A program made the translations under genes and the position numbers. Positions 1 to 60,238 of a stretch of 64,000 bases of DNA are shown here, in pieces (position 1 is the stretch's first letter; every line of letters begins with the position of its first letter). The notes under the pieces were generated by a model. The model searched no databases and was not told where the DNA came from. It saw only the letters and a program-made list of their open reading frames with translations. This DNA is from Candidatus Micrarchaeota archaeon (GTDB taxonomy: Archaea; Micrarchaeota; Micrarchaeia; Norongarragalinales; SBBD01). The stretch is taken from assembly GCA_043806595.1 (NCBI GenBank), contig JAZDGU010000004.1:8353-72352 (forward strand), given 5' to 3'.

Positions 1-750
1 GAGCGTGGAACGGAAGTCATGTACAACGGCGTGCCGATAAGCAAGGTCGTCGGCGAGGGCATGGGGATCGGCGACGTAATCGGGCTGCTGTGGTTCAAGA
101 AGAGGCTGCCGCCGTATGCAAGCAAGTTCGTCGAATTGTGCCTGATCATCAGCGCCGACCACGGCCCCGCGGTTTCCGGCGCGCACAACACGATCGTCGC
201 CAGCAGGGCCGGAAAGGACGTGATATCGAGCCTCTGCTCGGGGCTGCTGACCATCGGGCCCCGATTCGGGGGGGCGCTGGATGACGCGGCGAGGTATTTC
301 AAGGAGGCGAAGGACTCGGGCATGGCGCCGCAGGAGTTCGTCGACAGCATGAAGAAGAAGGGCGTGCTGATTCCCGGCATCGGCCACAGGATAAAGAGCG
401 TGCAGAACCCGGACGAGAGGGTGACGCAGCTCAAGGAATACGCCAAAAAGCACTTCAAGTCGACGAAATACCTGGACTACGCGCTCGAGGTCGAGAAAAT
501 CACCACGGGCAAGCGCAACAACCTCATCCTCAACGTCGACGGGTGCATGGCGGTGCTGTGGCTGGACCTGCTGACGTCCTGCGGGGAATTCTCCGAGGAA
601 GAGGTCAAGGACCTCGCGGAGGGCGGGTTCTTCAACGGGCTTTTCGCGCTCGGCAGGAGCATCGGGCTCATCGGCCACGCGCTCGACCAGAAGCGCCTGA
701 AACAGCCCCTGTACCGGCACCCGTGGGACGACATACTCTTTGTCAAGTGA
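1..750 (+). CDS. ATP-citrate lyase / citryl-CoA lyase, citrate-synthase-like C-terminal domain (5' partial, runs off window start)
   Basis: Translation ([16 protein letters not shown] ... NLILNVDG ... [29 protein letters not shown]) closely matches, from memory, the C-terminal citrate-synthase-like region of ATP-citrate lyase. The reading frame is open from base 1. Confidence 0.75.
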
Positions 751-846
751 CCCACCATTCGCCTGCCTTCAGCCAATCGATCCAATACGTGCAACAAAGT
801 AAAGCATTTAAAGTAAGTGCTTGCACATATAATGCGGGTGGAGGCC

Positions 847-1071
847 ATGGTGAACGTCACGGTGTCGGTTCCGGAGGATTTTAAGAAGGAGTTGGATAGG
901 CGGGCGGAAATCAACTGGTCGGAAGTCGCAAGGCAGGCTTGGAAGTCGAAGCTGGACCAGCTGGAGCTCCTCGACAGCCTGACTGCCAAAAGCAAGGCGA
1001 CTGACGAGGACATCGAGGAATTGGGCCGGATGCTCAGAAAAAACATGGCCGACAGGCACAAGAAGGCGTGA
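847..1071 (+). CDS. RHH-type antitoxin (paralog 1 of 3)
   Basis: 74 aa, MVNVTVSVPEDFKKELD ribbon-strand then helices. SD GGTGGAGG upstream. Stop overlaps GTG start of the downstream PIN gene. Paralogous to the 21090 and 56672 genes (shared M-x-N-V-T-x-S-x-P N-terminus). Confidence 0.6.
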   Translation: MVNVTVSVPEDFKKELDRRAEINWSEVARQAWKSKLDQLELLDSLTAKSKATDEDIEELGRMLRKNMADRHKKA

Positions 1072-1478
1072 ACTTGGAGGTCGTGGCAGACACGAACGTA
1101 ATCGTGGCGGCAATCCTGCGGAGGGGGCTTACGCGCAACCTCATCTTCAGCGCAGGGTTGCAACTGATTTCGCCGGATTTCGCATATCAGGAAATCAAAA
1201 ACCACGAGGAAGAGTATCTAAAAAAGTCGGGACTCGAACACAAGGCTTTCGAGCGATCCGTCGAAATCGTGCTTTCGCGAATCACGCCAATACCTGAAGA
1301 GGAATACGGGGGCCAACAAGCGACTGCCAAGGAATTCTCCCCGGATTTGGCGGACTGGCCTTTCTTTGCCTTGTCTCTTGTGAAAAAATGTCCTCTCTGG
1401 AGCAACGACCGCGTGTTGAAAAAGCAAAACCGCGTGCAAGTGATAAGCACGCCGGAACTGCTGGAAATGCTCGGATAA
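1068..1478 (+). CDS. PIN-domain toxin (VapC-like, paralog 1 of 3)
   Basis: 136 aa with acidic PIN residues (VVADTNVIV ... SNDRV). 4-bp overlap with the upstream antitoxin. Paralogs at 21316 and 56909. Confidence 0.7.
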   Translation: MNLEVVADTNVIVAAILRRGLTRNLIFSAGLQLISPDFAYQEIKNHEEEYLKKSGLEHKAFERSVEIVLSRITPIPEEEYGGQQATAKEFSPDLADWPFFALSLVKKCPLWSNDRVLKKQNRVQVISTPELLEMLG

Positions 1479-1576
1479 TAAAAGCAGCCACCCCACCGGC
1501 ACTTCATGCGTGCGGCATACTGTTTGTCAGGTAGCGAAACCGTGGGCCGCATGCAGTGCACGGCCGGCAGGCGAAA

Positions 1577-1723
1577 TCACGGCATATGGAAGACGCCCCA
1601 GAGGAGGATTCCCGCGACGAGCAGGAATTGGCCGAAGCCATCGCCTTGGACGGTCAGCCACGTGCCGATAACCAGCGCGCCGTACGCCGCGTAGTCGTAC
1701 GATGAAATGCCGCCGCCGCTCAT
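1577..1723 (-). CDS. small membrane protein (48 aa)
   Basis: Hand-translated: MSGGGISSYDYAAYGALVIGTWLTVQGDGFGQFLLVAGILLWGVFHMP. AGGGTGAA SD 8 nt upstream. Below the ORF-track size cutoff. Convergent with PIN module 1. Confidence 0.4.
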   Translation of the reverse strand: MSGGGISSYDYAAYGALVIGTWLTVQGDGFGQFLLVAGILLWGVFHMP

Positions 1724-1751
1724 CGGAAAATTCACCCTAACAATCCGCTAT

Positions 1752-7647: not shown

Positions 7648-10600
7648 CTAGAGTTCCACCTTCCGCGGGCGGTTGCGGGCGAGCGCGGTTCCGGCAAGCG
7701 CGGCGAGGCCGACGGGGGCGAGCCATAGGTAGTCCGGCTGGTTGGATGGAACCGAGCGGGGGACGAGGCGGGCCGAGATTTCGGATGCGGCAAGGTAGGC
7801 GTCGAGATAAAGCTCCTGCGAGATGCCGGCGTCGATTGCCTCGAGGGCTAGCCTGTCCTCCTCGCCGCCGAACTGGCCTACGCGGCTACGCGCGATTTCC
7901 GCCTGATCCAGCGCCATCTCCCGGATTTCCGAGTTGTATGAGTAAAGCGCCGAGGAAGCGCCTTGCAGGGATGCGAGGAAACTCGAGATTCTTGCCGCAG
8001 ACTGCCTGCCCAGCACATCCGGGTCCTTCTCCACAGCATTCGCAACCGCATCGAGCTGCTTGAGTGCAGCCGAAGCCGACTTGAATTCCGCTGCTGCGGC
8101 TGCGGCAAGCGCGGGCTTGCCCGCCCTGGAGGACGAGAAGAAGCGGGAATATTCCTCAATGGCGGTCGAAAAATCCGTTCGCGAGGCCGAGAAGTTCTCC
8201 AGCAGTTCGGAGACCGCCTGCGTCGAATCGGGTGCGCCTTCCGCGCCGGCCGGGTTCCATGCGGCCGCGGATGCCGGCGCGCCTACAGCGTCGGACGCGG
8301 GCGGGGGCGTCGCAAGGATTGCGGGCTGCGCGCCCTCCATCGACGCAAGGGACTGTTCGACCTCGTAGGCGGCCTCGAGCGCCTCCTCCCAACGCGAATC
8401 CAAGGCAAGGCTCTTGGCGTCCGAGAGTTTGGCCTGAAGCGGGGAATCCGGCACGGACGCAAGGCGTTCATCGAGCTCGGCGAGCTTGAGCCGGAACGCA
8501 TCCTCGGAGAAGCCCGCGCATTCGACGGACAGCGCGACGGAACGGGCCTCGCCCTCGCGCCAGGCACCTGAAGAAAGCCTCGCCCAGAGCATTCCTCCGG
8601 CATGCCCGACCGACGCCTTCAGTTCTGGCGGGAAGGACGCATTCGCGGAAAGTATTTCGCACGGCAGGGAGTCGTCGAACCGGAGTTCCGCGGAGCCGAG
8701 GTCCGAAAAAACGTTCCGGTAGTGTAGCGCGTAATCGAACCGTACGGGCAGGCCGTAAACGGGAACCGTTGTCCGGGAGGCGGAATGCTCGAACGGGTTT
8801 GCGGAGAAGAATGTGATTTCCAGATCGGTCCTGCCGGATGCAGCGTCGAGGACCAGCTCCAGCCAGCCTTTGGAGAACGTATCGCCGTAGGGCGCGGAAG
8901 ACGACACGGAATAATTCGAGCCCGGGGGAGCCCGAATCCGGAACAGCACGGGCAGGGGCAACGAGGAGTCGATTGAAACGGAAACCGCCTTCTCGGCGGA
9001 ATCCAGCCCAGCGGCAGACGCGCGCTCATTCATTGCGACAATCCGCGACGGCACCGCGGAGAAGGCGATGGCGACGGAATAATCCGATTGGATTACGCCG
9101 GAGAAGACCGCGCGCAGGCCGCCCTGACCCGATTCAACGGAAAGTCCGGGGGAGGCGTTCACAACGCGGGCGTCGGAGGCGTTGAACGGAAGGGCGACAT
9201 AAAACTTTTCCGGGGACTCGAAGGGCAAGGAATTCCCGAATGAGACCCGGGCTTCAACGTCGGCCCGCGCCCCAGGCTCGGTGGGGACAGCTGAAAATTG
9301 GACGAGCATGCTCCCCTCCAGCTCGCCCTGGATAAGCCGGCCTTTGTCCTTCTCCACGCCTGCGCGCACTGACGAGAGAAAAACCCGCATCGGCTTGAGG
9401 CGCCCGACGGCCTGCAAAGGGTCCAACTTGCCGCCGTGGAAAAACCCGGAATAAGCGGAAAGTGCATCGCGCTCGCCCGCCGAAAGGAACGCCTCCGCGG
9501 CCTCGGCGAATGCGAAGTCGGATTCGACGGAAGCGAACTCCTCGAACGCAGCGCGCCGCAGGCCTTCCTCGATGCCCAACAGTTCTCCGGAAAGAACCCT
9601 GACCGCGGCGTAATTGCCCTCGGAAGGCTCGGACAGGCGGCCGAGTGCGGACGCAACGGTCGACAGCCTCTGCCGGAACGCGGTGACGTCGATGCCGTCC
9701 TTCTCCGCGCCGGCGAGAAGGCCGCCGAGGCGCTGCGCCGCGCCTTCCGCCTCGGAATGGGCGAAGGCATATGCGTCCTGCGCGCCGCATGCCTCGCGGA
9801 TCCTGCCGAGGAAGACCAGCTGGGCCAGCAGGTGCGTGATCCTCGCGCCCGCCGAATTCTTCGACGCGTATTCGACGCGCATCTTCCCGAAATCGGAGAG
9901 CATCGACTGGAGCACGGCATACGATACCGGCTCGCCGCGCCTGCCTTCGGCAAGGAGCCTCACTTCCGCTTCTTCCCTCGCGGACCTTCCCTCGAGCAGC
10001 ATGCGCGCCGAGGACGCCGACTCCATGAGCTCGCCCCCGCCGTCCGAAATTCCCTCGAGGATGGCGAGTGCGCGCCGGCGCAGGACCACGGCGCGGCCGA
10101 GGTAGCCGCGGCTCCTCGCCGAAAGCAAATCATCCGCCTGCCTGGCAACCAGCTTTGCGAGCGACCCGTCCTCCTCGAGTGCGCGCACCCCGTCCTTGAA
10201 GGAGACCGGCCCGCTTGAGGGCTCGAAGATGCCGCCGTAGATGTACGGATACGCCTCCTCCGGGATGTCGGCAAGCTCCTCCTGCTTGATGCGGGCGAGC
10301 ACTGCATCCGCGGCCAGCCGTGCCACCTCGAGTGCCTCGCCGAGGCTCCGGCTCGCCTGCCACATGCCGGTTATGGATTCGTCGATGCGGCGGGCAAGCG
10401 AAAAAGTGCACGCCAGCACGGAATTCGGGCCGGCGAGGTCCTGCAGCACCGACAAATTGGCGATGTTCGCGAGGTAGTCCTCGCTGAGGGCGCGGAGCTT
10501 TGACGAAGACGAGACCATCCTCTGCCCGAGGGAGGTGCCGTCCGACGACGAGGAAAGGAGATGGCGCTCGGTCTCCCTGATTTCGTTGCGCACGCCCTGG

Positions 10601-20823: not shown

Positions 20824-20978
20824 CCGTTTCCTCCCCTCGGGGCAACCATTAAAAACCTGCTTTCCCAAACAATTGGTGTCAGCGGTCATAGGCCGGGGGC
20901 AACACCCGTTCCCTTTTCGAACACGGAAGTAAAGCCCCGGTGCGATTCCGTCGGTACTGCCCTGCGGGTGGGAAAGCG

Positions 20979-21013
20979 GGATACCGCTGCGCTTCAACAA
21001 CCCCCAGCGCAGC
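20979..21013 (+). repeat. direct-repeat / hairpin element, upstream copy flanking RHH-PIN module 2
   Basis: GATACCGCTGCGCTT (15 nt exact) plus CAACAACCCCCAGCGCAGC. The inverted GCTGCGC/GCGCAGC arms can form a hairpin. Second copy at 21734. Confidence 0.5.
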
Positions 21014-21063
21014 TTGGGGAAGGGGGGAAAAGCCACCTCAAAGGCAAGGTATTTATATGTGCG

Positions 21064-21084
21064 TTCACATAAAAAATATGTGAA
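21064..21084 (+). promoter_or_regulatory. palindromic operator candidate upstream of antitoxin 2
   Basis: TTCACATA-AAAAA-TATGTGAA, perfect 8-bp arms, ends 5 nt before the ATG at 21090 and overlaps the AT-rich promoter. A GTGAATTT motif is also upstream of antitoxin 3. Confidence 0.45.
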
Positions 21085-21089
21085 TTTAT

Positions 21090-21332
21090 ATGACTAACGT
21101 GACACTGTCCTTCCCGGATGCGTTCTGGAGGAGGATGAAGGCGTTCCCGGAAATCTGCTGGTCGAAGGCAGTGCGGAGCGTCATCGAAGGCAAGCTCGAC
21201 GACTTCGAGGAGGCCGAGCGCCTCGTCGGAAAAAGCCGCTTTCGCGAGGAGGACGTCGCGCGCCTTTCAAAGAAGGTGGACGACGCCATGGCCAGGCATG
21301 CCGGGGCGCTGTTGAATGAAGCTCGTCGTTGA
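21090..21332 (+). CDS. RHH-type antitoxin (paralog 2 of 3)
   Basis: 80 aa, MTNVTLSFPDAF N-terminus paralogous to 847 and 56672. 17-nt overlap with the PIN gene. Confidence 0.6.
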   Translation: MTNVTLSFPDAFWRRMKAFPEICWSKAVRSVIEGKLDDFEEAERLVGKSRFREEDVARLSKKVDDAMARHAGALLNEARR

Positions 21333-21726
21333 CGCCAATATCCTCCTTTCCGCGCTGCTGCGCAAGGGATTGACCCAGCGGCTCTGGTTCCATCCGTCGT
21401 TGCGGCTCAGCGCCCCCGAGTTCCTTCTCGTCGAGGCGCGCGCGCATATAGAGGAAATGAGGCAAAAATACGGCGGCACACAGGACGAGCTGATGCGTGT
21501 GTTCAGCCTGCTGGAGAAACAATTAACCCTGGTTCAGGATGAAAAGCTCCTGCCCTTCCTGCCCGCGGCTTCCACGCTCACCAAGGACAGGAAAGACTTG
21601 CTTTATCTGGCCTGCGCCCTTTATGAGGATGCGGCCTTGTGGACGCACGACAAGGGCTTCAAATCCCAGCGGCGGATCAAAATATACTCCACGCTGGAAC
21701 TCGGGGAAGAAATCGGTTCGCTTTAA
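21316..21726 (+). CDS. PIN-domain toxin (paralog 2 of 3)
   Basis: 136 aa, MKLVVDANILLSALL ... WTHDKGF. PIN acidic residues conserved. Confidence 0.75.
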   Translation: MKLVVDANILLSALLRKGLTQRLWFHPSLRLSAPEFLLVEARAHIEEMRQKYGGTQDELMRVFSLLEKQLTLVQDEKLLPFLPAASTLTKDRKDLLYLACALYEDAALWTHDKGFKSQRRIKIYSTLELGEEIGSL

Positions 21727-21733
21727 GGCCAGT

Positions 21734-21768
21734 GATACCGCTGCGCTTTTCAAAACCCCGGCGCAAGC
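21734..21768 (+). repeat. direct-repeat / hairpin element, downstream copy flanking RHH-PIN module 2
   Basis: GATACCGCTGCGCTT exact, then TTCAAAACCCCGGCGCAAGC. Begins 8 nt after the PIN stop. Confidence 0.5.
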
Positions 21769-32221: not shown

Positions 32222-32256
32222 TTTAGTGTAAAAAGTGTTAAAGGTGTTAAACGTGT
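32222..32256 (+). promoter_or_regulatory. three tandem approximately 9-bp repeats (AGTGTAAAA / AGTGTTAAA / GGTGTTAAA) overlapping the start of the vapB-like gene
   Basis: Visible tandem GTGTTAAA units immediately before or over the GTG start codons. Candidate autoregulatory operator. Confidence 0.35.
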
Positions 32257-32519
32257 CCGAATCGGGGCTGATTACGAAGAAGGTGCCGCGCAGGATCGTG
32301 CCGAAGATCCGCAGGCTGCAGGCCAACTACATGCTGAGGCACCGCAGACGGATTTCCGAGGCGGAAATCATCGAGAAGGGGGTCGAGAAACTCACGGAAG
32401 ACGACCTGATGGAAACCGGAAAGAAAAGCGCCAGATGGGAGGACTTTTTCGGAATGGACAAGTCAAGGACAAAAGGAGATTCGCGCACCGATGTTGACAA
32501 GGTAGTTTACGGGATTTGA
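32235..32519 (+). CDS. vapB: VapB-like antitoxin
   Basis: 94 aa, GTG start (alternative GTGs at 32244 and 32253). KKVPRRIVPKIRRL DNA-binding-like N-terminus. 3-nt gap to vapC. Confidence 0.5.
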   Translation: MLKVLNVSESGLITKKVPRRIVPKIRRLQANYMLRHRRRISEAEIIEKGVEKLTEDDLMETGKKSARWEDFFGMDKSRTKGDSRTDVDKVVYGI

Positions 32520-32522
32520 GCC

Positions 32523-32921
32523 ATGATTTTCGTCGACACGAGCATTTTCATAGCCGCGGCGCGCGCCAACGACCCATCCCACGCCCAAGGCTTGGCGCTC
32601 ATACAACGCGCAAAAAGGGAGGGGGAGACCCTCATCACTTCCGACCATGTGCTTGACGAGACTGTGACATACCTGCAGGCAAAGGGAGGGAAGGAGAGGG
32701 CAAGCGAGGCTGGCAGGCAGATGCTGCGCCTGGAGAAGCTTCAAATGGAATACAATTCTCCCCCGCGCACGGACGCCGCCCTGAGGATCGTGGGAAAAAT
32801 CGACGGGATGAGTTTCTGCGACGCCTTGAGCATCGTCGTCATGCAGGAACTCGGAATCAGGACCATCTACTCTTTCGACTCCGACTTCGACAAAATCGCC
32901 GGGATAAGGAGAATCGAATAG
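32523..32921 (+). CDS. vapC: VapC PIN-domain ribonuclease toxin
   Basis: 132 aa. MIFVDTSIFIAA ... ITSDHVLDET ... SFCDA ... YSFDSDF gives the classic PIN acidic quartet. Confidence 0.8.
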   Translation: MIFVDTSIFIAAARANDPSHAQGLALIQRAKREGETLITSDHVLDETVTYLQAKGGKERASEAGRQMLRLEKLQMEYNSPPRTDAALRIVGKIDGMSFCDALSIVVMQELGIRTIYSFDSDFDKIAGIRRIE

Positions 32922-55411: not shown

Positions 55412-55993
55412 ATGCGGCAGGCCGTCATACTAATCGGGCTTCTCGTGGCGGCAATCGCCATATATGCCGCGATCCCCAAGCCGGAGCTCTCGCCCTACGG
55501 CACGGACCAGGTCAAGCAGTTCGTGCTCGAGGACGCGAGGAACGACTACCCGTCGGCGCAGGTCGAGGTGCTCTCCGCCGGGAACAAGGACGGGAAGTGG
55601 CTCGTCGACGTCAAGATAGCGAGGGACGCGCACTCCAAGTGCCCGAAGATAGTCATGCGCGCCTACACGTTCCCGCCCATACTGTTCCGCGAGGAGGTCT
55701 ACAACGACAGGTGCAGTGCCGGAGGTTCGCTGCTGGTATACCCCGAGGAGGCGATACTGGCCTCTGCGCAGACTTCGCAGGTGAAGGCGCTGCCCGAGGA
55801 CGCGCAAGGGAACGCGCGCATGTACACCGCGGAGGAAATCAGGGCGCTGCAGCAGTGCGTCGCGTGCTCGCCGTTCGAGGAGTTCTCGAAGGCGCTGCCT
55901 GCTGAAAGGCTGTGGGCCGTCCAATGGGACTACGCGGGCAAGACTCTGTACGTCGCGCTGGACATCTACGGAAAGGCGGTCGCGACAAGCTAG
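55412..55993 (+). CDS. signal-anchored extracellular protein 5
   Basis: 193 aa. MRQAVILIGLLVAAIAIYAAIP. SD GGGGGAGGGG. Last gene of the pilin-like operon. Confidence 0.5.
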   Translation: MRQAVILIGLLVAAIAIYAAIPKPELSPYGTDQVKQFVLEDARNDYPSAQVEVLSAGNKDGKWLVDVKIARDAHSKCPKIVMRAYTFPPILFREEVYNDRCSAGGSLLVYPEEAILASAQTSQVKALPEDAQGNARMYTAEEIRALQQCVACSPFEEFSKALPAERLWAVQWDYAGKTLYVALDIYGKAVATS

Positions 55994-56514
55994 CCTATTG
56001 ACACGAGCGGCCGGCACTTCCTGCAGAACTCTGCAGTCTTGCGGTCGAGGAACATCAGGTTGCGCGCCTGGTTCATGACGCAGTTCCTGTTGCTGCAGTG
56101 CGGTATGCCCATCAGGTGCCCGAGCTGGTGCACTACCTTCTTGTAGAGCCTGCGCCGGAAGAGCTCGTCGTCGTGCCTGCCCTGCATGGCGGGGTCGAAG
56201 GCGTGGTAGCTGACGATGGCCGTGCGGCCTACGTTCTCGGCGACGCCGAACACCTGTTTGCGCCTGCCGGCGAACATGTCGTAGGGGAAGAGGCCGATGA
56301 CGAACGTCCCGCGCTCCTTCGCGAACAGCCCCGAGAGCCATTCCAGCAGCTTCTCCGCGTCCCACTGGCCGCGCGGCTCCGTGAAGTGCTCGTAGTCCGC
56401 GGGCAGGGGGCGCTTGAGGAGCACTACTTCCGCCTTGAACGCGCCGGAGAGCGTCGTCTTGAGGAAGGAGGCGTCCCTGCAGGGAAGCTCGACCTCGGCT
56501 AGGATTATGCGCAT
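55990..56514 (-). CDS. amzA: archaemetzincin zinc metalloprotease
   Basis: 174 aa from MRIILAEV. HQLGHLMGIPHCSNRNCVM plus C-terminal CRKC matches the archaemetzincin HExxHxxGxxH/CPxC signature. The ORF track extends to 56868. Confidence 0.75.
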   Translation of the reverse strand: MRIILAEVELPCRDASFLKTTLSGAFKAEVVLLKRPLPADYEHFTEPRGQWDAEKLLEWLSGLFAKERGTFVIGLFPYDMFAGRRKQVFGVAENVGRTAIVSYHAFDPAMQGRHDDELFRRRLYKKVVHQLGHLMGIPHCSNRNCVMNQARNLMFLDRKTAEFCRKCRPLVSIG

Positions 56515-56551
56515 GGGAAAGGCTAGGCGGCAGAGGTTTTTATTGGCTTGC

Positions 56552-56585
56552 GGCGCGGGCTCAGACGGCGAGCATGAGGAGGCCG
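56552..56585 (+). repeat. 34-bp perfect direct repeat, upstream copy (pseudo 3' end of small membrane protein gene) flanking RHH-PIN module 3
   Basis: TCAGACGGCGAGCATGAGGAGGCCGATGAACGCG is identical to 57348..57381. Confidence 0.8.
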
Positions 56586-56671
56586 ATGAACGCGGGGAAG
56601 AGACCAGTAAGAAATGAAAAGTATTAAAAATATTAATAGTGTGAATTTTATCAACCGAGGAGGTGATTTGG

Positions 56672-56908
56672 ATGGCGCAGATGCTTTCCGTGCCGCTGCC
56701 GGACGACCTGAAGAAGGACCTCGACAGGCACAAGGAAATTAAGTGGGTGGAGATCGCGAGGCAGGCGCTCAGGGACAAGGTGGAGGCGCTTGACGAGATG
56801 GACGAATTCTTCGCAAAAAGCAGCCTGACGGCGGAGGACGTGGAAAAGCATGCGAGAGCCGTCAGCAAGAACGTGTGGAAGAGGCATAAGAAGGAACTGG
56901 GGCTTTAG
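56672..56908 (+). CDS. RHH-type antitoxin (paralog 3 of 3)
   Basis: 78 aa. MAQMLSVPLPDDLKKDLD. SD GGAGGTGA 6 nt upstream. The ORF track starts at 56663. Confidence 0.6.
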   Translation: MAQMLSVPLPDDLKKDLDRHKEIKWVEIARQALRDKVEALDEMDEFFAKSSLTAEDVEKHARAVSKNVWKRHKKELGL

Positions 56909-57334
56909 ATGCCGATCGAACTAGCAGTGGATGCCAACGTGCTGTTCTCGGCGATGCTCGCGGACGGCACGACCAGGCGGCTCATACTCGACCGGAGGCT
57001 CAGGCTCTGCGCGCCGTCTTATTTGATGGAGGAAATGCTGAGGCACATGCGGGGCGACGACAAGCTCGCAAGAAAGCTGAACCGGACAAAAGAGGAGGCG
57101 GCGATGCAGCTGCAGAGCCTCGGGAGGCACATCGAGGTTGTGCCGCTCGAGGAGTACGGGGCCAGCATACCGGAGGTTCTGAAAGACTGCCCGGATCCCT
57201 TCGATGCCGAGTATCTTGCAGTCGCAAAACGGCGCAGCATCCCATTGTGGACGAACGACAGGAGACTCAAGAACCAGGCGGCCGTTGAAGTGCTGAACAC
57301 GCGCGAGGTCCTCGAACTGCTGGGACGGAAATGA
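56909..57334 (+). CDS. PIN-domain toxin (paralog 3 of 3)
   Basis: 141 aa. MPIELAVDANVLFSAML ... WTNDRRL. ATG abuts the antitoxin stop. Confidence 0.75.
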   Translation: MPIELAVDANVLFSAMLADGTTRRLILDRRLRLCAPSYLMEEMLRHMRGDDKLARKLNRTKEEAAMQLQSLGRHIEVVPLEEYGASIPEVLKDCPDPFDAEYLAVAKRRSIPLWTNDRRLKNQAAVEVLNTREVLELLGRK

Positions 57335-57347
57335 CCGCAGCAGGCGT

Positions 57348-57527
57348 TCAGACGGCGAGCATGAGGAGGCCGATGAACGCGAGGAACACCCCGAAGAGGA
57401 TCACCGCGCCCTGGACGGCGACGCCGAGCATGGCCCAGGCCCCGGCGGACTGGAACCAATAGTACCACGAGGCTGCGATTACCAGGAGGCCGAGGATGAG
57501 AGAAGCTATGCCTGCCTTGCTCAGCAT
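57348..57527 (-). CDS. small membrane protein (59 aa) whose 3' end is duplicated upstream of TA module 3
   Basis: Hand-translated: MLSKAGIASLILGLLVIAASWYYWFQSAGAWAMLGVAVQGAVILFGVFLAFIGLLMLAV. Its last 10 codons plus stop form the 34-bp repeat 57348..57381. Confidence 0.4.
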   Translation of the reverse strand: MLSKAGIASLILGLLVIAASWYYWFQSAGAWAMLGVAVQGAVILFGVFLAFIGLLMLAV

Positions 57528-57545: not shown

Positions 57546-57836
57546 CTACTTGATGAAGTCGTCGAGCAGCTCCACCGCGCGCCTGATGCTCTGCGCGATC
57601 TGCTTCTCGCTCTTTGCGCCGCTGCAGATTACCTTGCCGTTCTTGAACAGCAAAAGCGTGGTTCCGATCTCCTTGAGGCGCATGATGGCGCCCGGGAACT
57701 GCTCGGGCTCGTACTCGACGTTGTCGACTTCCATGGCGATGTTGAACAGGTCGAGCTCGACGTTGAGGTTCGCCGAGGCGACGATGTTCTCCACCTTGAA
57801 GCCCATGTTTATGTGCGGGCGTTTTTTCTTGACCAT
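57546..57836 (-). CDS. tbp: single-repeat TATA-box-binding-protein homolog (half-size TBP, 96 aa)
   Basis: ENIVASANLNVELDLFNIA ... EYEPEQFPGAIMRL ... LLLFKNGKVICSGAKSEKQI matches one TBP repeat (closest to the C-terminal repeat). Clean stop. No second repeat is encoded on either side. AT-rich promoter with TTTAAATA and a leaderless start. Confidence 0.7.
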   Translation of the reverse strand: MVKKKRPHINMGFKVENIVASANLNVELDLFNIAMEVDNVEYEPEQFPGAIMRLKEIGTTLLLFKNGKVICSGAKSEKQIAQSIRRAVELLDDFIK

Positions 57837-59615: not shown

Positions 59616-59729
59616 GGCTCGACTCAGCGCGCATTGGTTCAACCGCTAGTGGCAGCCAGGGTTCGCACTGGAAACGGGGCCGCAAAGAATTTAATATCAT
59701 TTTGGTATCAAATAGTAGGTGAGGCAAGG

Positions 59730-59984
59730 ATGGAGATGGTGGTCAGGATGGAGGGAATGGTCGAGAACGTCCTCAACAGGCTTGTGGAGAAGGGCTACTT
59801 CAAAACCAAGTCCGAGGCGGTGAGGGCGGGAATCCTCGAGCTGGGGAAGGAATACGCGCTTGTTGGGAGTGAGAAATACCTAGTCAGCCGAAAAATCGCG
59901 CGTTTGGAAAGACTGGCTGACCAAGGAAAGCTCAAATTCACCCCGTTGGAAGAAGTTGCCCGCAAGGCAGGCGTGAAAATATGA
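59730..59984 (+). CDS. RHH (CopG-like) antitoxin (paralog B)
   Basis: 84 aa from the ATG after GGTGAGG SD. MEMVVRMEGMVENVLNRLVEKGYFKTKSEAVRAGILELGKEY. The ORF track starts at 59634. Confidence 0.6.
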   Translation: MEMVVRMEGMVENVLNRLVEKGYFKTKSEAVRAGILELGKEYALVGSEKYLVSRKIARLERLADQGKLKFTPLEEVARKAGVKI

Positions 59985-60238
59985 ATTATGGGGTAGTCTT
60001 CGAATCGGCTGCGGAGAATCAGCTTCTCGGCAAAGATTTTTCGGTACGCAAGAGGCTGATCCAGCGCATCGCCAGAATGCCATTTGAAACCCCGGGGCGC
60101 CATATGGAAAAGGGCCTGCCGTATTTTGTAGCGCAAGCTGGCCAGTATCGGATAATTTATACCTGCAAGGAAGGAGTGAAACGCATTTATTTCGTCGGAG
60201 ACCACAAGGAGTACGAGCGCTGGTACAAACAGTTGTGA
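59981..60238 (+). CDS. relE: RelE/ParE-family toxin (paralog B)
   Basis: 85 aa with 4-nt overlap with the antitoxin. YRIIYTCKEGVKRIYFVGDHKEYERWY. Confidence 0.7.
   Translation: MNYGVVFESAAENQLLGKDFSVRKRLIQRIARMPFETPGRHMEKGLPYFVAQAGQYRIIYTCKEGVKRIYFVGDHKEYERWYKQL

Follow-up and report, generated by a model that had tools for sequence, protein, structure and literature searches.

Insertion with long target duplication was reportedly described for restriction-modification gene complexes by Nobusato et al. in 2000 (Gene 259:99). The restriction-modification inserts analysed by Furuta, Abe and Kobayashi in 2010 are flanked by direct repeats of more than 30 bp and carry no mobility genes (PMC2853133). 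Their repeats are unique, differ from one insert to the next and in some cases extend into the 3' end of an adjacent gene; several such inserts can be present in a genome, and the repeat is found once in the empty-site genome (PMC2853133). Two different restriction-modification inserts of Haemophilus influenzae both show duplications of 46 bp, and no archaeal case survived the screen (PMC2853133). Clear parallels emerge between these inserts and an RHH_12/PIN_2 cassette present in the 64-kb window (the whole stretch of DNA that was analysed) of a Candidatus Micrarchaeota archaeon. In both cases a small addiction unit without mobility gene is bounded by direct repeats of more than 30 bp, and an empty-site genome has a single copy; the insert of 753 nt lies within the limit of 20 kb applied to restriction-modification inserts, and in the related contig L002 the same hotspot includes a DNA methylase gene. 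We consider it rather probable that the cassette represents an insertion with long target duplication that was brought about by host recombination, as for the bacterial restriction-modification genes. This pattern, itself unexplained and until now seen mainly with bacterial restriction-modification genes, would thereby gain a type II toxin-antitoxin family as cargo and DPANN archaea as hosts. There are also differences, since a type II toxin-antitoxin pair (RHH-PIN_2) forms the cargo, the insert is found in a DPANN archaeon, and the repeats of 32 to 36 bp are at the short end of a range that extends from 45 to ~420 bp in restriction-modification inserts. Furthermore, the trigger proposed for the latter is double-strand breakage by the restriction enzyme, for which the PIN toxin offers no obvious counterpart, and the empty site comes here from a distant relative and not from a conspecific strain.

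The cassette starts with a promoter and leader region (56614 to 56671, plus strand) that contains the conserved box ATGAAAAGTATTAAAAATATTAA and the ribosome-binding-like motif GGAGGTGA. It is followed by the gene for an antitoxin of 78 aa (56672 to 56908, plus strand) and, in the same orientation, by that for a toxin of 141 aa (56909 to 57334, plus strand), the TAG stop codon of the former directly abutting the ATG of the latter. The database protein P0009, identical to the antitoxin, and all its 29 homologues have a precomputed assignment to RHH_12 (PF26688), and a separate hmmscan against the local Pfam returned no family. The toxin matches Pfam PIN_2 (E = 8.8e-16) and also PIN (E = 3.7e-07), and the acidic catalytic residues of PIN proteins are kept: D8, E42 and D99 are invariant in 12 homologues, and D117 falls within a conserved W-[ST]-N-D motif. 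The arrangement of an RHH gene followed by a PIN gene is common to L001, L005, L009 and L015 to L030, the box (G)TATTAAAAAT is also found upstream of RHH in L005, L009 and L022, and the RHH-PIN_2 unit with the same promoter box recurs in several distinct genomic contexts of Micrarchaeota. Judged from these sequence features, the pair is predicted to form a self-contained addiction cassette of the type II toxin-antitoxin kind that carries its own promoter. Since the search for PIN homologues retrieved as its sole match the PIN protein itself, there is no nearest foreign PIN that could be used to date the acquisition; RHH_12 was not found in viral contigs.

The cassette shares with VapBC and FitAB systems the upstream, abutting antitoxin, the acidic PIN residues, an own promoter and the presence of many paralogous copies per genome. 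It differs from VapBC in its families, which are RHH_12 and PIN_2 and not those of the classic VapB and PIN (PF01850) profiles. To our knowledge, vapBC loci have not been described as being flanked by target duplications, and a literature search found no report of such a case. Similar to the toxin-antitoxin cassettes of chromosomal integrons, such as the Vibrio superintegrons, the RHH-PIN_2 pair is a minimal unit with its own promoter that behaves as a movable cassette; in contrast to integron cassettes, no repeated or inverted ends of the kind expected from an attC-type imperfect palindrome were found, neither a cassette array nor an integron integrase is seen in the 64-kb window, and the repeats are derived from the target and not from the cassette.

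A direct repeat of 34 bp, TCAGACGGCGAGCATGAGGAGGCCGATGAACGCG, flanks the cassette. It is present in exactly two copies in the 64-kb window with up to 3 mismatches allowed, at 56561 to 56594 and at 57348 to 57381, and no exact match to it exists among the JGI metagenome contigs. Within the 64 kb and these contigs, the search for further copies, which had been suggested in an initial annotation of this DNA, speaks against a common repeat. That annotation had correctly recognised a perfect repeat, but its upstream start at 56552 was 9 nt too low, and the distance from the upstream copy to the ATG of the antitoxin at 56672 is 77 nt and not about 86 nt as given there. The 13 nt between the PIN stop at 57334 and the downstream copy were exact, and the insert of about 760 bp corresponds to the measured 753 nt between the copies, which amounts to a period of 787 nt. 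The copies are identical at 34 of 34 positions, and the repeat extends to 39 nt when one mismatch is admitted. None of 100 dinucleotide-preserving shuffles produced a match to the 34-mer. In a sliding test that compared 260 nt upstream with 200 nt downstream of a 650-nt gap at 1256 positions across the whole window, this locus was the highest, with a flank score of 73 as compared to a 99.5th percentile of 35. On visual inspection the 34-mer shows no evident dyad symmetry, and the 64-kb window contains no array of repeats resembling it.

Both copies can be related to a gene for a small membrane protein of 59 aa (57348 to 57527, minus strand), which is the insertion target and is intact. The downstream copy comprises its real stop codon, the last 10 codons and 1 nt, as the ORF confirms, and the upstream copy is an out-of-context pseudo-3' end (stop and 10 codons on the minus strand) of a truncated version of the gene, so that both descriptions in the initial annotation hold. 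The segment from 56595 to 56613 is probably a continuation of this truncated fragment, with a minus-strand reading of ..LTGLFP followed by AFIGLLMLAV*; it differs from the resident small gene and agrees with the allele of relatives. Nucleotides 35 to 46 of the upstream copy agree with the L002/L003 allele in 10 of 12 positions (by eye) and match the resident small gene at 7 of 12 (p = 0.02, scripted comparison). There is a sharp change at repeat position 34/35, past which the upstream copy resembles a different allele of the small gene. The duplicated piece is identical over 34 bp and recognisable over ~46 bp. Similarity just beyond the 34-mer gave p = 0.07 on the outer and p = 0.02 on the inner side. 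This weak similarity is suggestive, but it cannot separate a duplication at a staggered break from a join of two diverged alleles. On the other side of the cassette, the spacer of 13 nt between the PIN stop and the small-gene stop (57335 to 57347) resembles by eye the 11-nt spacer of L002 at the same place.

The cassette is located in a region of variable content that is bordered on the left by amzA, encoding an archaemetzincin of 174 aa (55990 to 56514, minus strand; Pfam Peptidase_M54, E = 2.4e-23). The gene calls made initially for amzA and the toxin stand, as does that for the antitoxin on the basis of its precomputed RHH_12 assignment. A spacer of 46 nt with a T/A-rich box (56515 to 56560) lies upstream of amzA. 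To the right of the small gene follows a TBP-like gene with a single repeat (96 aa, 57546 to 57836, minus strand; Pfam TBP, E = 2.8e-28), which served as a synteny anchor: its protein is 92 to 97% identical to the orthologues in L001, L002 and L003, and small-gene orthologues of 59 aa, with 63 to 68% identity, adjoin the TBP-like gene in L001 to L004. The comparison with relatives that had been proposed in the initial annotation revealed an empty site in L004, where both flanks are orthologous and the stop of the small gene is separated by 46 nt from the ATG of amzA. The same spacing, from pseudo-stop to amzA ATG, is present in the window. The empty site and the matching 46 nt support the claim made there that the cassette entered the small gene at its 3' end and that the target was regenerated. 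The amzA proteins of L004 and the window are 66% identical, and their small genes agree in 28 of the final 36 nt. As L004 is a distant relative, its empty state is possibly derived and not ancestral.

Five related genomes showed five different contents at this site, namely, RHH-PIN, RHH with a DNA methylase gene, a pair made up of a weak DUF4258-like gene and AbrB, gene fragments, or nothing, so that the cargo turns over rapidly here. Three of the five belong to one clade, with amzA proteins that are 82 to 86% identical. In L002 the DNA methylase gene is accompanied by an adjacent uncharacterised gene. The interval between the small gene and amzA is a small hotspot at which addiction-type modules are swapped among close relatives. 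An RHH gene, with or without PIN, is located at the same site in L001 and L002, indicating that the cassette family is old at this locus. The antitoxin of the window is 78 to 79% identical to those of L001 and L002, homology to the regions upstream of these RHH genes restarts exactly at 56614, and the RHH identities (78, 79 and 88%) track the species tree, which fits long residence as well as repeated entry. The perfect repeat may be the record of a re-insertion, or of a recombination between filled and empty alleles, rather than that of the first arrival. Repeated integration at a regenerated site would leave fragments of the small-gene 3' end inside filled loci; none above background was detected in L001, L002 and L003, the best match being 22/36.

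Flanking repeats are not confined to this locus. A second RHH-PIN_2 cassette in the window (20980 to 21765, plus strand), with RHH at 21090 to 21332 and PIN_2 at 21316 to 21726 (E = 1.9e-21), is flanked by a 32-nt repeat at 20980 to 21011 and 21734 to 21765 that corresponds to the last 13 nt of a 5S rRNA gene (20878 to 20992, 63 bits) and the 19 nt downstream of it. Its repeat score of 38 exceeded the shuffle maximum of 26, and in the window-wide flank test it was the second-highest locus. The left end of its insert is 78 nt upstream of the RHH ATG, as compared to 77 nt in the amzA-linked cassette. Another example is found in a different Micrarchaeota genome, in which a repeat with 33 of 36 identical positions, derived from the first 10 codons of a phosphomutase gene, was observed in two independent assemblies (L022, JGI; L027, ENA) at the same offsets from the cassette. 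This cassette is situated at the 5' end of a gene. A duplication of the full intergenic region of 117 nt in L027, considered on account of equal spacer lengths, was ruled out (p = 0.85). A weak case is the third cassette of the window (700 to 1535, plus strand; RHH at 847 to 1071, PIN at 1068 to 1478, PIN_2 E = 3.5e-24), with a possible decayed repeat of ~51 nt at 700 to 750, formed by the last 16 codons and stop of a citrate synthase gene (Citrate_synt, E = 1e-24), and at 1482 to 1535, 3 nt past the PIN stop; its score of 28 compares with a shuffle maximum of 31 and corresponds to the 97th percentile window-wide. Among 16 distinct RHH-PIN_2 cassettes there were thus three strong cases and one weak one. 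The strong repeats measure 32, 34 and 36 nt and are unrelated to each other in sequence. No empty sites were found for the remaining repeat-flanked cassettes.

The same signature at other RHH-PIN_2 cassettes strengthens one of the two options left by the initial annotation, that of a minimal mobile toxin-antitoxin cassette. The other, a decayed integrative element, is unlikely because three to four independent elements would each have to decay to promoter, RHH and PIN while keeping both repeats. Apart from promoter, RHH and PIN, the 753-nt insert contains nothing, and in particular no mobility gene. The initial annotation had also seen the signature of site-specific integration and had suggested a search for an integrase acting in trans. 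This search covered only 64 kb of the genome, and the 40 window ORFs with a length of 170 aa or more gave no Phage_integrase, resolvase, transposase or Cas1 hit. Nor were terminal inverted repeats present in the four inserts: when the first 50 nt of each insert were compared with the reverse complement of its last 50 nt, between 123 and 448 of 500 shuffles scored at least as high. Across the four cassettes, neither conserved non-coding insert ends nor a common target motif was found. Their repeats share at most a 5-8-mer, a single 8-mer having a chance expectation of ~2% by hand calculation. GGGGAAG, present near the left end of two inserts, was dropped as a shared motif because it is missing from the other two. 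With unrelated repeats that have no shared core, no inverted repeats or conserved ends and no integrase among the 40 ORFs of the 64 kb, the reading as site-specific integration by an integrase is not supported.

The comparison with elements that move by their own enzymes leads to a similar result. With phage- and SSV-type integrative elements the locus shares repeats that correspond to the 3' end of the target, a regenerated gene and the presence of an RNA gene (5S rRNA) among the targets; it differs by the lack of an integrase in or near the insert, the size of 753 bp, repeats that are specific for each cassette without a shared core, and one target at a 5' end. There are no tRNA genes in the 64-kb window. 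Casposons preferentially integrate at tRNA or aEF-2 genes, at the 3' end. Insertion sequences of the Mycoplasma IS1630/IS1634 group have unusually long target duplications (PMC2853133). The repeats described here, 32 to 36 nt long (~51 nt in the weak case), likewise exceed the short, fixed duplications of 2 to 15 bp of DNA transposons and MITEs, but casposons and the IS1630/IS1634 group possess terminal inverted repeats and their own Cas1 or transposase, neither of which is present here.

Given that the element has no recombinase, inverted ends or common attachment sequence, the event was attributed to the recombination and repair machinery of the host. According to the proposed mechanism, the cassette would have been inserted into the recombination hotspot between the small membrane-protein gene and amzA, with duplication of the 3' end of the small gene around the insert, by which the target gene was left intact. 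A crossover between the repeat copies would loop the cassette out as a circle with one copy and restore the empty site; the junction of this circle would read PIN end, 13 nt, the 34-mer and GGGAAGAG. In a related genome with an empty site, the circle, or a linear fragment with one homologous flank, may then be taken up through one crossover within the same 3' end. Such an entry would be either an integrase-free integration of the Campbell type or homology-facilitated illegitimate recombination, and the identical tract of 34 bp would correspond to the exchange or conversion tract of the entry event. As one crossover between diverged alleles would not on its own produce 34 identical bases in both copies, the mechanism must also invoke heteroduplex repair or a later conversion. 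An insertion at a staggered break, in which both copies stem from the recipient, followed by a later allele replacement would give the same picture, and the data do not separate the two. Two observations do not sit easily with host recombination: only three strong and one weak of the 16 distinct RHH-PIN_2 cassettes are repeat-flanked, and the narrow range of 32 to 36 nt, which it does not predict, hints at a ruler-like enzyme.

That the cassette predates the split of the lineages, the repeat having arisen when an empty-site allele replaced the amzA-proximal side of a filled locus, appears unlikely to us, although several data are in its favour. The incoming DNA, comprising amzA and its 46-nt spacer together with ~50 nt of the small gene, would have been fused by an illegitimate join immediately before the RHH promoter, and the side replaced would be that which in relatives contains a zinc-ribbon/AbrB gene and gene fragments; the resulting structure would be the same. 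The common position of RHH in L001 and L002, promoter homology that begins exactly at 56614 and RHH identities that parallel the species tree agree with such a history, as do the PIN gene of L001, which is likewise convergent with the small gene, the similarity of the 13-nt spacer to that of L002, and nucleotides 35 to 46 of the upstream copy, which resemble the allele of the clade containing the empty-site genome. Deletions and fragment joins are moreover common at the site, as seen in L001 and L002. However, the 34 identical bases would still need a conversion, one and the same special course of events would have to be postulated for the 5S rRNA and again for the phosphomutase case, the window retains nothing of the zinc-ribbon/AbrB gene, and small-gene fragments were not seen inside the filled loci of L001, L002 and L003. 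An assembly artefact joining two strains, or a chance match, is hardly credible as the origin of the repeat. The source is a metagenome-assembled genome, and an exact repeat of 34 bp could mislead a short-k-mer assembler, but no shuffle gave a match, the junction between the 34-mer and the region upstream of the cassette must occur in real reads on either contig path, the 46-nt spacing recurs in an independent contig that stems from a different study, and the analogous 33/36 repeats recur at the same offsets in the independent L022 and L027 assemblies.

The two remaining explanations invoke an enzyme. A site-specific recombinase of the tyrosine or serine type, encoded elsewhere, might have integrated a small circle with an attachment site corresponding to the final 34 bp of the small gene, the repeat copies being attL and attR; this seems improbable. 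The identical core, the 3' end of a gene as target, its regeneration, the empty site of the relative and a second cassette at the 3' end of an RNA gene, a classic kind of target, are as expected for such an enzyme, and 32 to 36 nt is within the usual length range of attachment sites. Yet the insert and the 40 ORFs of the 64-kb window contain no integrase, and the cassettes' repeats have no core or motif in common, nor their inserts any arm-like ends, so that one recombinase would need a different attachment site for each cassette; one target is a 5' end, and small-gene-like sequence goes on past the identical core in the upstream copy. Very improbable, in our opinion, is a dedicated, unrecognised activity that makes a staggered cut of ~32 to 36 bp, either a transposase acting in trans or the RHH-PIN complex, in which case the repeats would be true target-site duplications. 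With this, the RHH_12/PIN_2 cassettes of Micrarchaeota might represent a new kind of minimal mobile element that inserts next to gene ends, with a ruler-like target duplication of 32 to 36 bp made by a trans enzyme or by RHH-PIN itself, a notion to which we attach very little credence. RHH would then bind the DNA and PIN act as nuclease, and if this were true, a toxin-antitoxin pair would be its own transposition machinery. The strong repeats of 32, 34 and 36 nt despite unrelated sequences and the left insert ends at 77 and 78 nt from the RHH ATG are in its favour, and the 46-bp pair of H. influenzae hints at long duplications of fixed length (PMC2853133). Against this stand the lack of inverted or conserved ends that an enzyme could recognise, the majority of RHH-PIN_2 cassettes that have no flanking repeat, a sample of three cases, and the mismatched small-gene-like extension, which is unexpected from a simple 34-bp duplication. 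Furthermore, PIN toxins of this kind are known as RNases.

The movement of chromosomal toxin-antitoxin systems has mostly been inferred from patchy distribution, and direct footprints of single insertions are rare. The locus next to amzA provides a clean footprint, composed of the insert, the duplicated target and the empty site, and this footprint recurs at paralogous cassettes of the same genome and in another Micrarchaeota genome. It was observed in DPANN archaea, whose tiny genomes are densely packed with genes and contain few recognised mobile elements, and which lead a cell-associated life. The hotspot makes the process testable by population metagenomics, in which empty and filled alleles as well as circle junctions can be sought. 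Exact look-ups of the PIN, TBP-like and amzA proteins of the window gave no record, and the MAG of origin was reached by homology searches. As to amzA itself, its product is 100% identical to the database protein P0001 of a Candidatus Micrarchaeota MAG, and the query returned no relative among the GTDB representative genomes; its motif reads HQLGH in the window as compared to HExGH in relatives.

The RHH_12 antitoxin/PIN_2 toxin cassette lies between two copies of the 34-mer TCAGACGGCGAGCATGAGGAGGCCGATGAACGCG, located at 56561-56594 and 57348-57381 of the window, which stems from a Candidatus Micrarchaeota metagenome-assembled genome. The perfect 34-bp direct repeat described in the initial annotation was recovered as an exact 34-mer, with only these two copies in the 64-kb window at up to 3 mismatches and none in 100 shuffles; allowing one mismatch extends it to 39 nt. 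The upstream copy had been placed at 56552, which is 9 nt off, so that the gap to the antitoxin ATG at 56672 is 77 nt and not 86 nt. The downstream copy is, as had been proposed, the 3' end of a 59-aa ORF (57348-57527, minus strand), the small membrane-protein gene, and spans its stop codon, the ten codons before it, and one further base. The other gene calls at the locus were borne out as well: amzA (55990-56514, minus strand) matches Peptidase_M54 (E = 2e-23), and the 78-aa antitoxin (56672-56908), for which our own hmmscan run returned no family, is identical to a database protein with a precomputed RHH_12 match. The 141-aa toxin (56909-57334) matches PIN_2 (E = 9e-16); D8, E42, and D99 do not vary among its homologues, and it has the W-[ST]-N-D aspartate. 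A 96-aa single-repeat TBP-like gene (57546-57836, minus strand) follows beyond the small gene. A flank test over 1256 positions of the window, in which the 260 nt before a 650-nt gap were compared with the 200 nt after it, gave the focal locus a score of 73, as compared to a 99.5th percentile of 35.

In the RHH upstream regions of the relatives' contigs L001 and L002, homology to the window restarts at 56614, at ATGAAAAGTATTAAAAATATTAA, a box that is also found 5' of RHH genes in unrelated contexts. The 19 nt separating the 34-mer from this box translate on the minus strand to ..LTGLFP, which precedes AFIGLLMLAV*. By eye, nucleotides 35-46 of the upstream copy match the small-gene allele of L002 and L003 at 10 of 12 positions; they match the resident small gene at 7 of 12 (p = 0.02), and the two copies are weakly similar beyond the stop codon (6/12, p = 0.07). 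Since the nucleotides beyond the 34-mer continue as small-gene-like sequence, the upstream copy is, judged from these alignments, a small-gene fragment of at least 46 nt, of which the last 34 are identical to the resident gene and the inner part looks like another small-gene allele. Uniform decay would not produce so abrupt a change at position 34/35, which appears to mark a recombination or conversion boundary.

No close relative of the window was found among the GTDB representative genomes. A search with the amzA protein identified four relatives with 65-68% identity (contigs L001 to L004), all of which share the gene order TBP-like gene, 59-aa gene, variable segment, and amzA; the content of the variable segment is distinct in every one of these genomes, including that of the window. 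The window carries RHH-PIN; L001 contains PIN-RHH, a zinc-ribbon/AbrB gene, and a fragment of a second RHH-PIN; L002 contains RHH, followed by a 271-aa gene and an N6_N4 DNA methylase, and a truncated zinc-ribbon/AbrB gene; and L003 contains a 79-aa gene with a weak DUF4258 match and a zinc-ribbon/AbrB (MazE_antitoxin) gene. L004 contains nothing, the small-gene stop being followed by 46 nt and the amzA ATG, and provides the empty site predicted by the initial annotation. A spacer of exactly 46 nt likewise separates the amzA ATG of the window from the pseudo-stop in the upstream copy of the repeat, with a T/A-rich box at the same position as in L004. Because of this shared distance and box position, the left junction in the window is considered to have the empty-site architecture, with the cassette inside the duplicated small-gene end. 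L002, L003, and L004 form a tight clade with 82-86% identical amzA, to which the window and L001 are outgroups (65-73%), so that three different contents of this hotspot have arisen within a short evolutionary distance.

The segment of L001 that adjoins amzA (9450-9690) comprises the C-terminal half of an RHH, which is a 130-nt repeat of the RHH 3' end with 83% identity to the intact gene, and about 22 PIN codons, and it is joined to the zinc-ribbon/AbrB gene at that gene's end; this arrangement points to earlier tandem cassettes and deletions at the hotspot. At 493-2487 of L002, the RHH gene of the window and L001 is present with its promoter and is followed not by PIN but by the 271-aa gene, which has no Pfam match, and the methylase. 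These two genes are probably a restriction-modification pair, and the RHH may be a controller-like regulator or may have been kept while PIN was replaced. Three relatives have the zinc-ribbon plus AbrB/MazE-type antitoxin-like gene at the hotspot (L003 727-1280, L001 9090-9440, and L002 2560-2724); L001 and L003 carry it in full, and L002 has a version truncated to 54 aa. That of L003 lies after the 79-aa gene, with which it possibly forms another toxin-antitoxin pair.

Two more RHH-like/PIN_2 pairs are present in the gene map of the window. One of these (21090-21726; PIN_2 E = 1.9e-21) is located directly after a 5S rRNA gene (20878-20992, 63 bits), is the second-highest locus in the window-wide flank test, and is flanked by a 32-nt repeat (20980-21011 and 21734-21765) that is identical over its first 15 nt and has small indels and one or two mismatches thereafter. 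The left copy consists of the last 13 nt of the 5S rRNA gene and 19 nt of hairpin-like downstream sequence and ends 78 nt before the RHH ATG, and the right copy begins 7 nt after the PIN stop, a geometry that matches that of the focal cassette. The other pair (847-1478; PIN_2 E = 3.5e-24) follows citrate synthase and shows, within 700-1535, a possible decayed repeat of about 51 nt with about 70% identity; its left copy consists of the citrate synthase stop codon and the 16 codons before it, and its right copy begins 3 nt after the PIN stop and ends with an in-register TAG. Since its score is only at the 97th percentile of the flank test, this case is counted as weak. An unannotated hydrophobic ORF of about 48 aa (1578-1724, minus strand), small-membrane-protein-like by eye, converges on this PIN about 100 nt downstream; it recalls the small membrane gene adjoining the focal cassette, which may be a coincidence.

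An RHH profile of 29 sequences led to 12 JGI loci, of which one was positive in the flank test (L022, 0/300 shuffles). This RHH_12-PIN_2 cassette is from another Micrarchaeota genome, and its repeat (L022 12-47 and 886-921) is identical at 33 of 36 positions, or over 41 nt at 88%, in L027, the longer ENA version of the locus (1066-1106 and 1940-1980). The repeat comprises 5 nt and the first ten codons (MLFGTSGIRG) of a phosphoglucomutase/phosphomannomutase-family gene, namely, a gene 5' end and not a 3' end, and there is no homology between the two flanks outside it. The functional copy of this gene has its own T/A-rich box, which lies in the 112 nt after PIN. No flanking repeat was found at the cassettes of L001, L005/L016, L009-L014, L015, L017, L018, L020/21, L023-L026, L029, and L030, and the repeat-less cassettes sit in several different genomic contexts. 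The comparators are distant and the cases few: strong flanking repeats are present at three of the 16 distinct cassettes and a weak one at a further cassette. Flanking repeats are also absent from two other toxin-antitoxin-like pairs in the window, one of them VapBC-like (32235-32921; PIN PF01850, E = 1e-16) and the other a small pair with a weak ParE_toxin match in its second gene (59634-60238). The latter lies between DUF655 and a glycosyltransferase-family gene and may be another variable spot, since L001 has three different small genes there.

The model of the initial annotation, integration into a gene 3' end by a minimal mobile cassette or a decayed integrative element, holds as regards insertion into the gene end, regeneration of the target, and an empty site in relatives, but its integrase finds no support. 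None of the 40 window ORFs with 170 aa or more encodes an integrase, transposase, or Cas1, and the window is also devoid of tRNA genes. The inserts have no terminal inverted repeats, and their ends are alike only where the homologous promoter or PIN C-terminus is compared; the four repeats have no shared core, their best common word being one 8-mer with a chance expectation of about 2% (hand calculation). With neither a shared core nor inverted ends nor an integrase in the 64-kb window, these results do not fit a dedicated site-specific integrase with one attachment site. Decay of three or four larger elements, each to exactly promoter, RHH, and PIN and with both repeat copies kept, is very unlikely. 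RHH_12 was not found on viral contigs.

Kobayashi and colleagues named 'insertion with long target duplication' for restriction-modification systems, for which two different 46-bp duplications were found in Haemophilus influenzae and no archaeal case survived the insert screen (PMC2853133). The likeness lies in an addiction-type unit without mobility genes and in direct repeats of more than 30 bp that are unique, differ between inserts, overlap neighbouring gene ends, and are single copy at the empty site, whereas the window cargo is a toxin-antitoxin pair and the host is archaeal. The window cassette is thus most likely a toxin-antitoxin, archaeal variant of this type of insertion. The 34/35 mosaic, the conservation of the 46-nt spacer, and the fact that relatives also carry RHH at this site favour a cycle driven by host homologous recombination. 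A crossover between the two repeat copies would release a circle with one copy and restore the empty site; this circle, or else a linear piece of DNA with homology at one flank, would enter a related genome at its empty site by crossing over in the gene end common to both, and the 34 identical bases would represent the exchange or conversion tract. Less probably, the cassette was inserted at a staggered break, followed by allele replacement, or the polarity is reversed and the amzA-side flank of a locus filled long ago was replaced by an empty allele; this last reading is supported by RHH identities that parallel the species tree. A ruler-like enzymatic mechanism has a low probability, but it would account for two features that host recombination leaves unexplained, namely, that the strong repeats vary so little in length (32, 34, and 36 nt) and that the repeat-to-RHH-start distances, 77 and 78 nt, are nearly the same. 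In a limited literature search, no report was found on toxin-antitoxin cassettes with flanking long target duplications or on toxin-antitoxin mobility in Micrarchaeota; the focal locus represents a concrete, testable footprint of such mobility in DPANN archaea.

The archaemetzincin encoded by the window amzA has the motif HQLGHLMGIPHC near residues 128-140, and HE[LIT]GH is found in 4/4 relatives. It may be catalytically inactive, since glutamine takes the place of the catalytic glutamate of the HExxH zinc motif. With its one TBP repeat, the 96-aa TBP-like protein equals half of a normal TATA-binding protein. It has orthologues in L001 (7899-8189), L002 (1-291), and L003 (170-460), and its identity among these Micrarchaeota is 92-99%, as compared to 63-86% for its neighbours.
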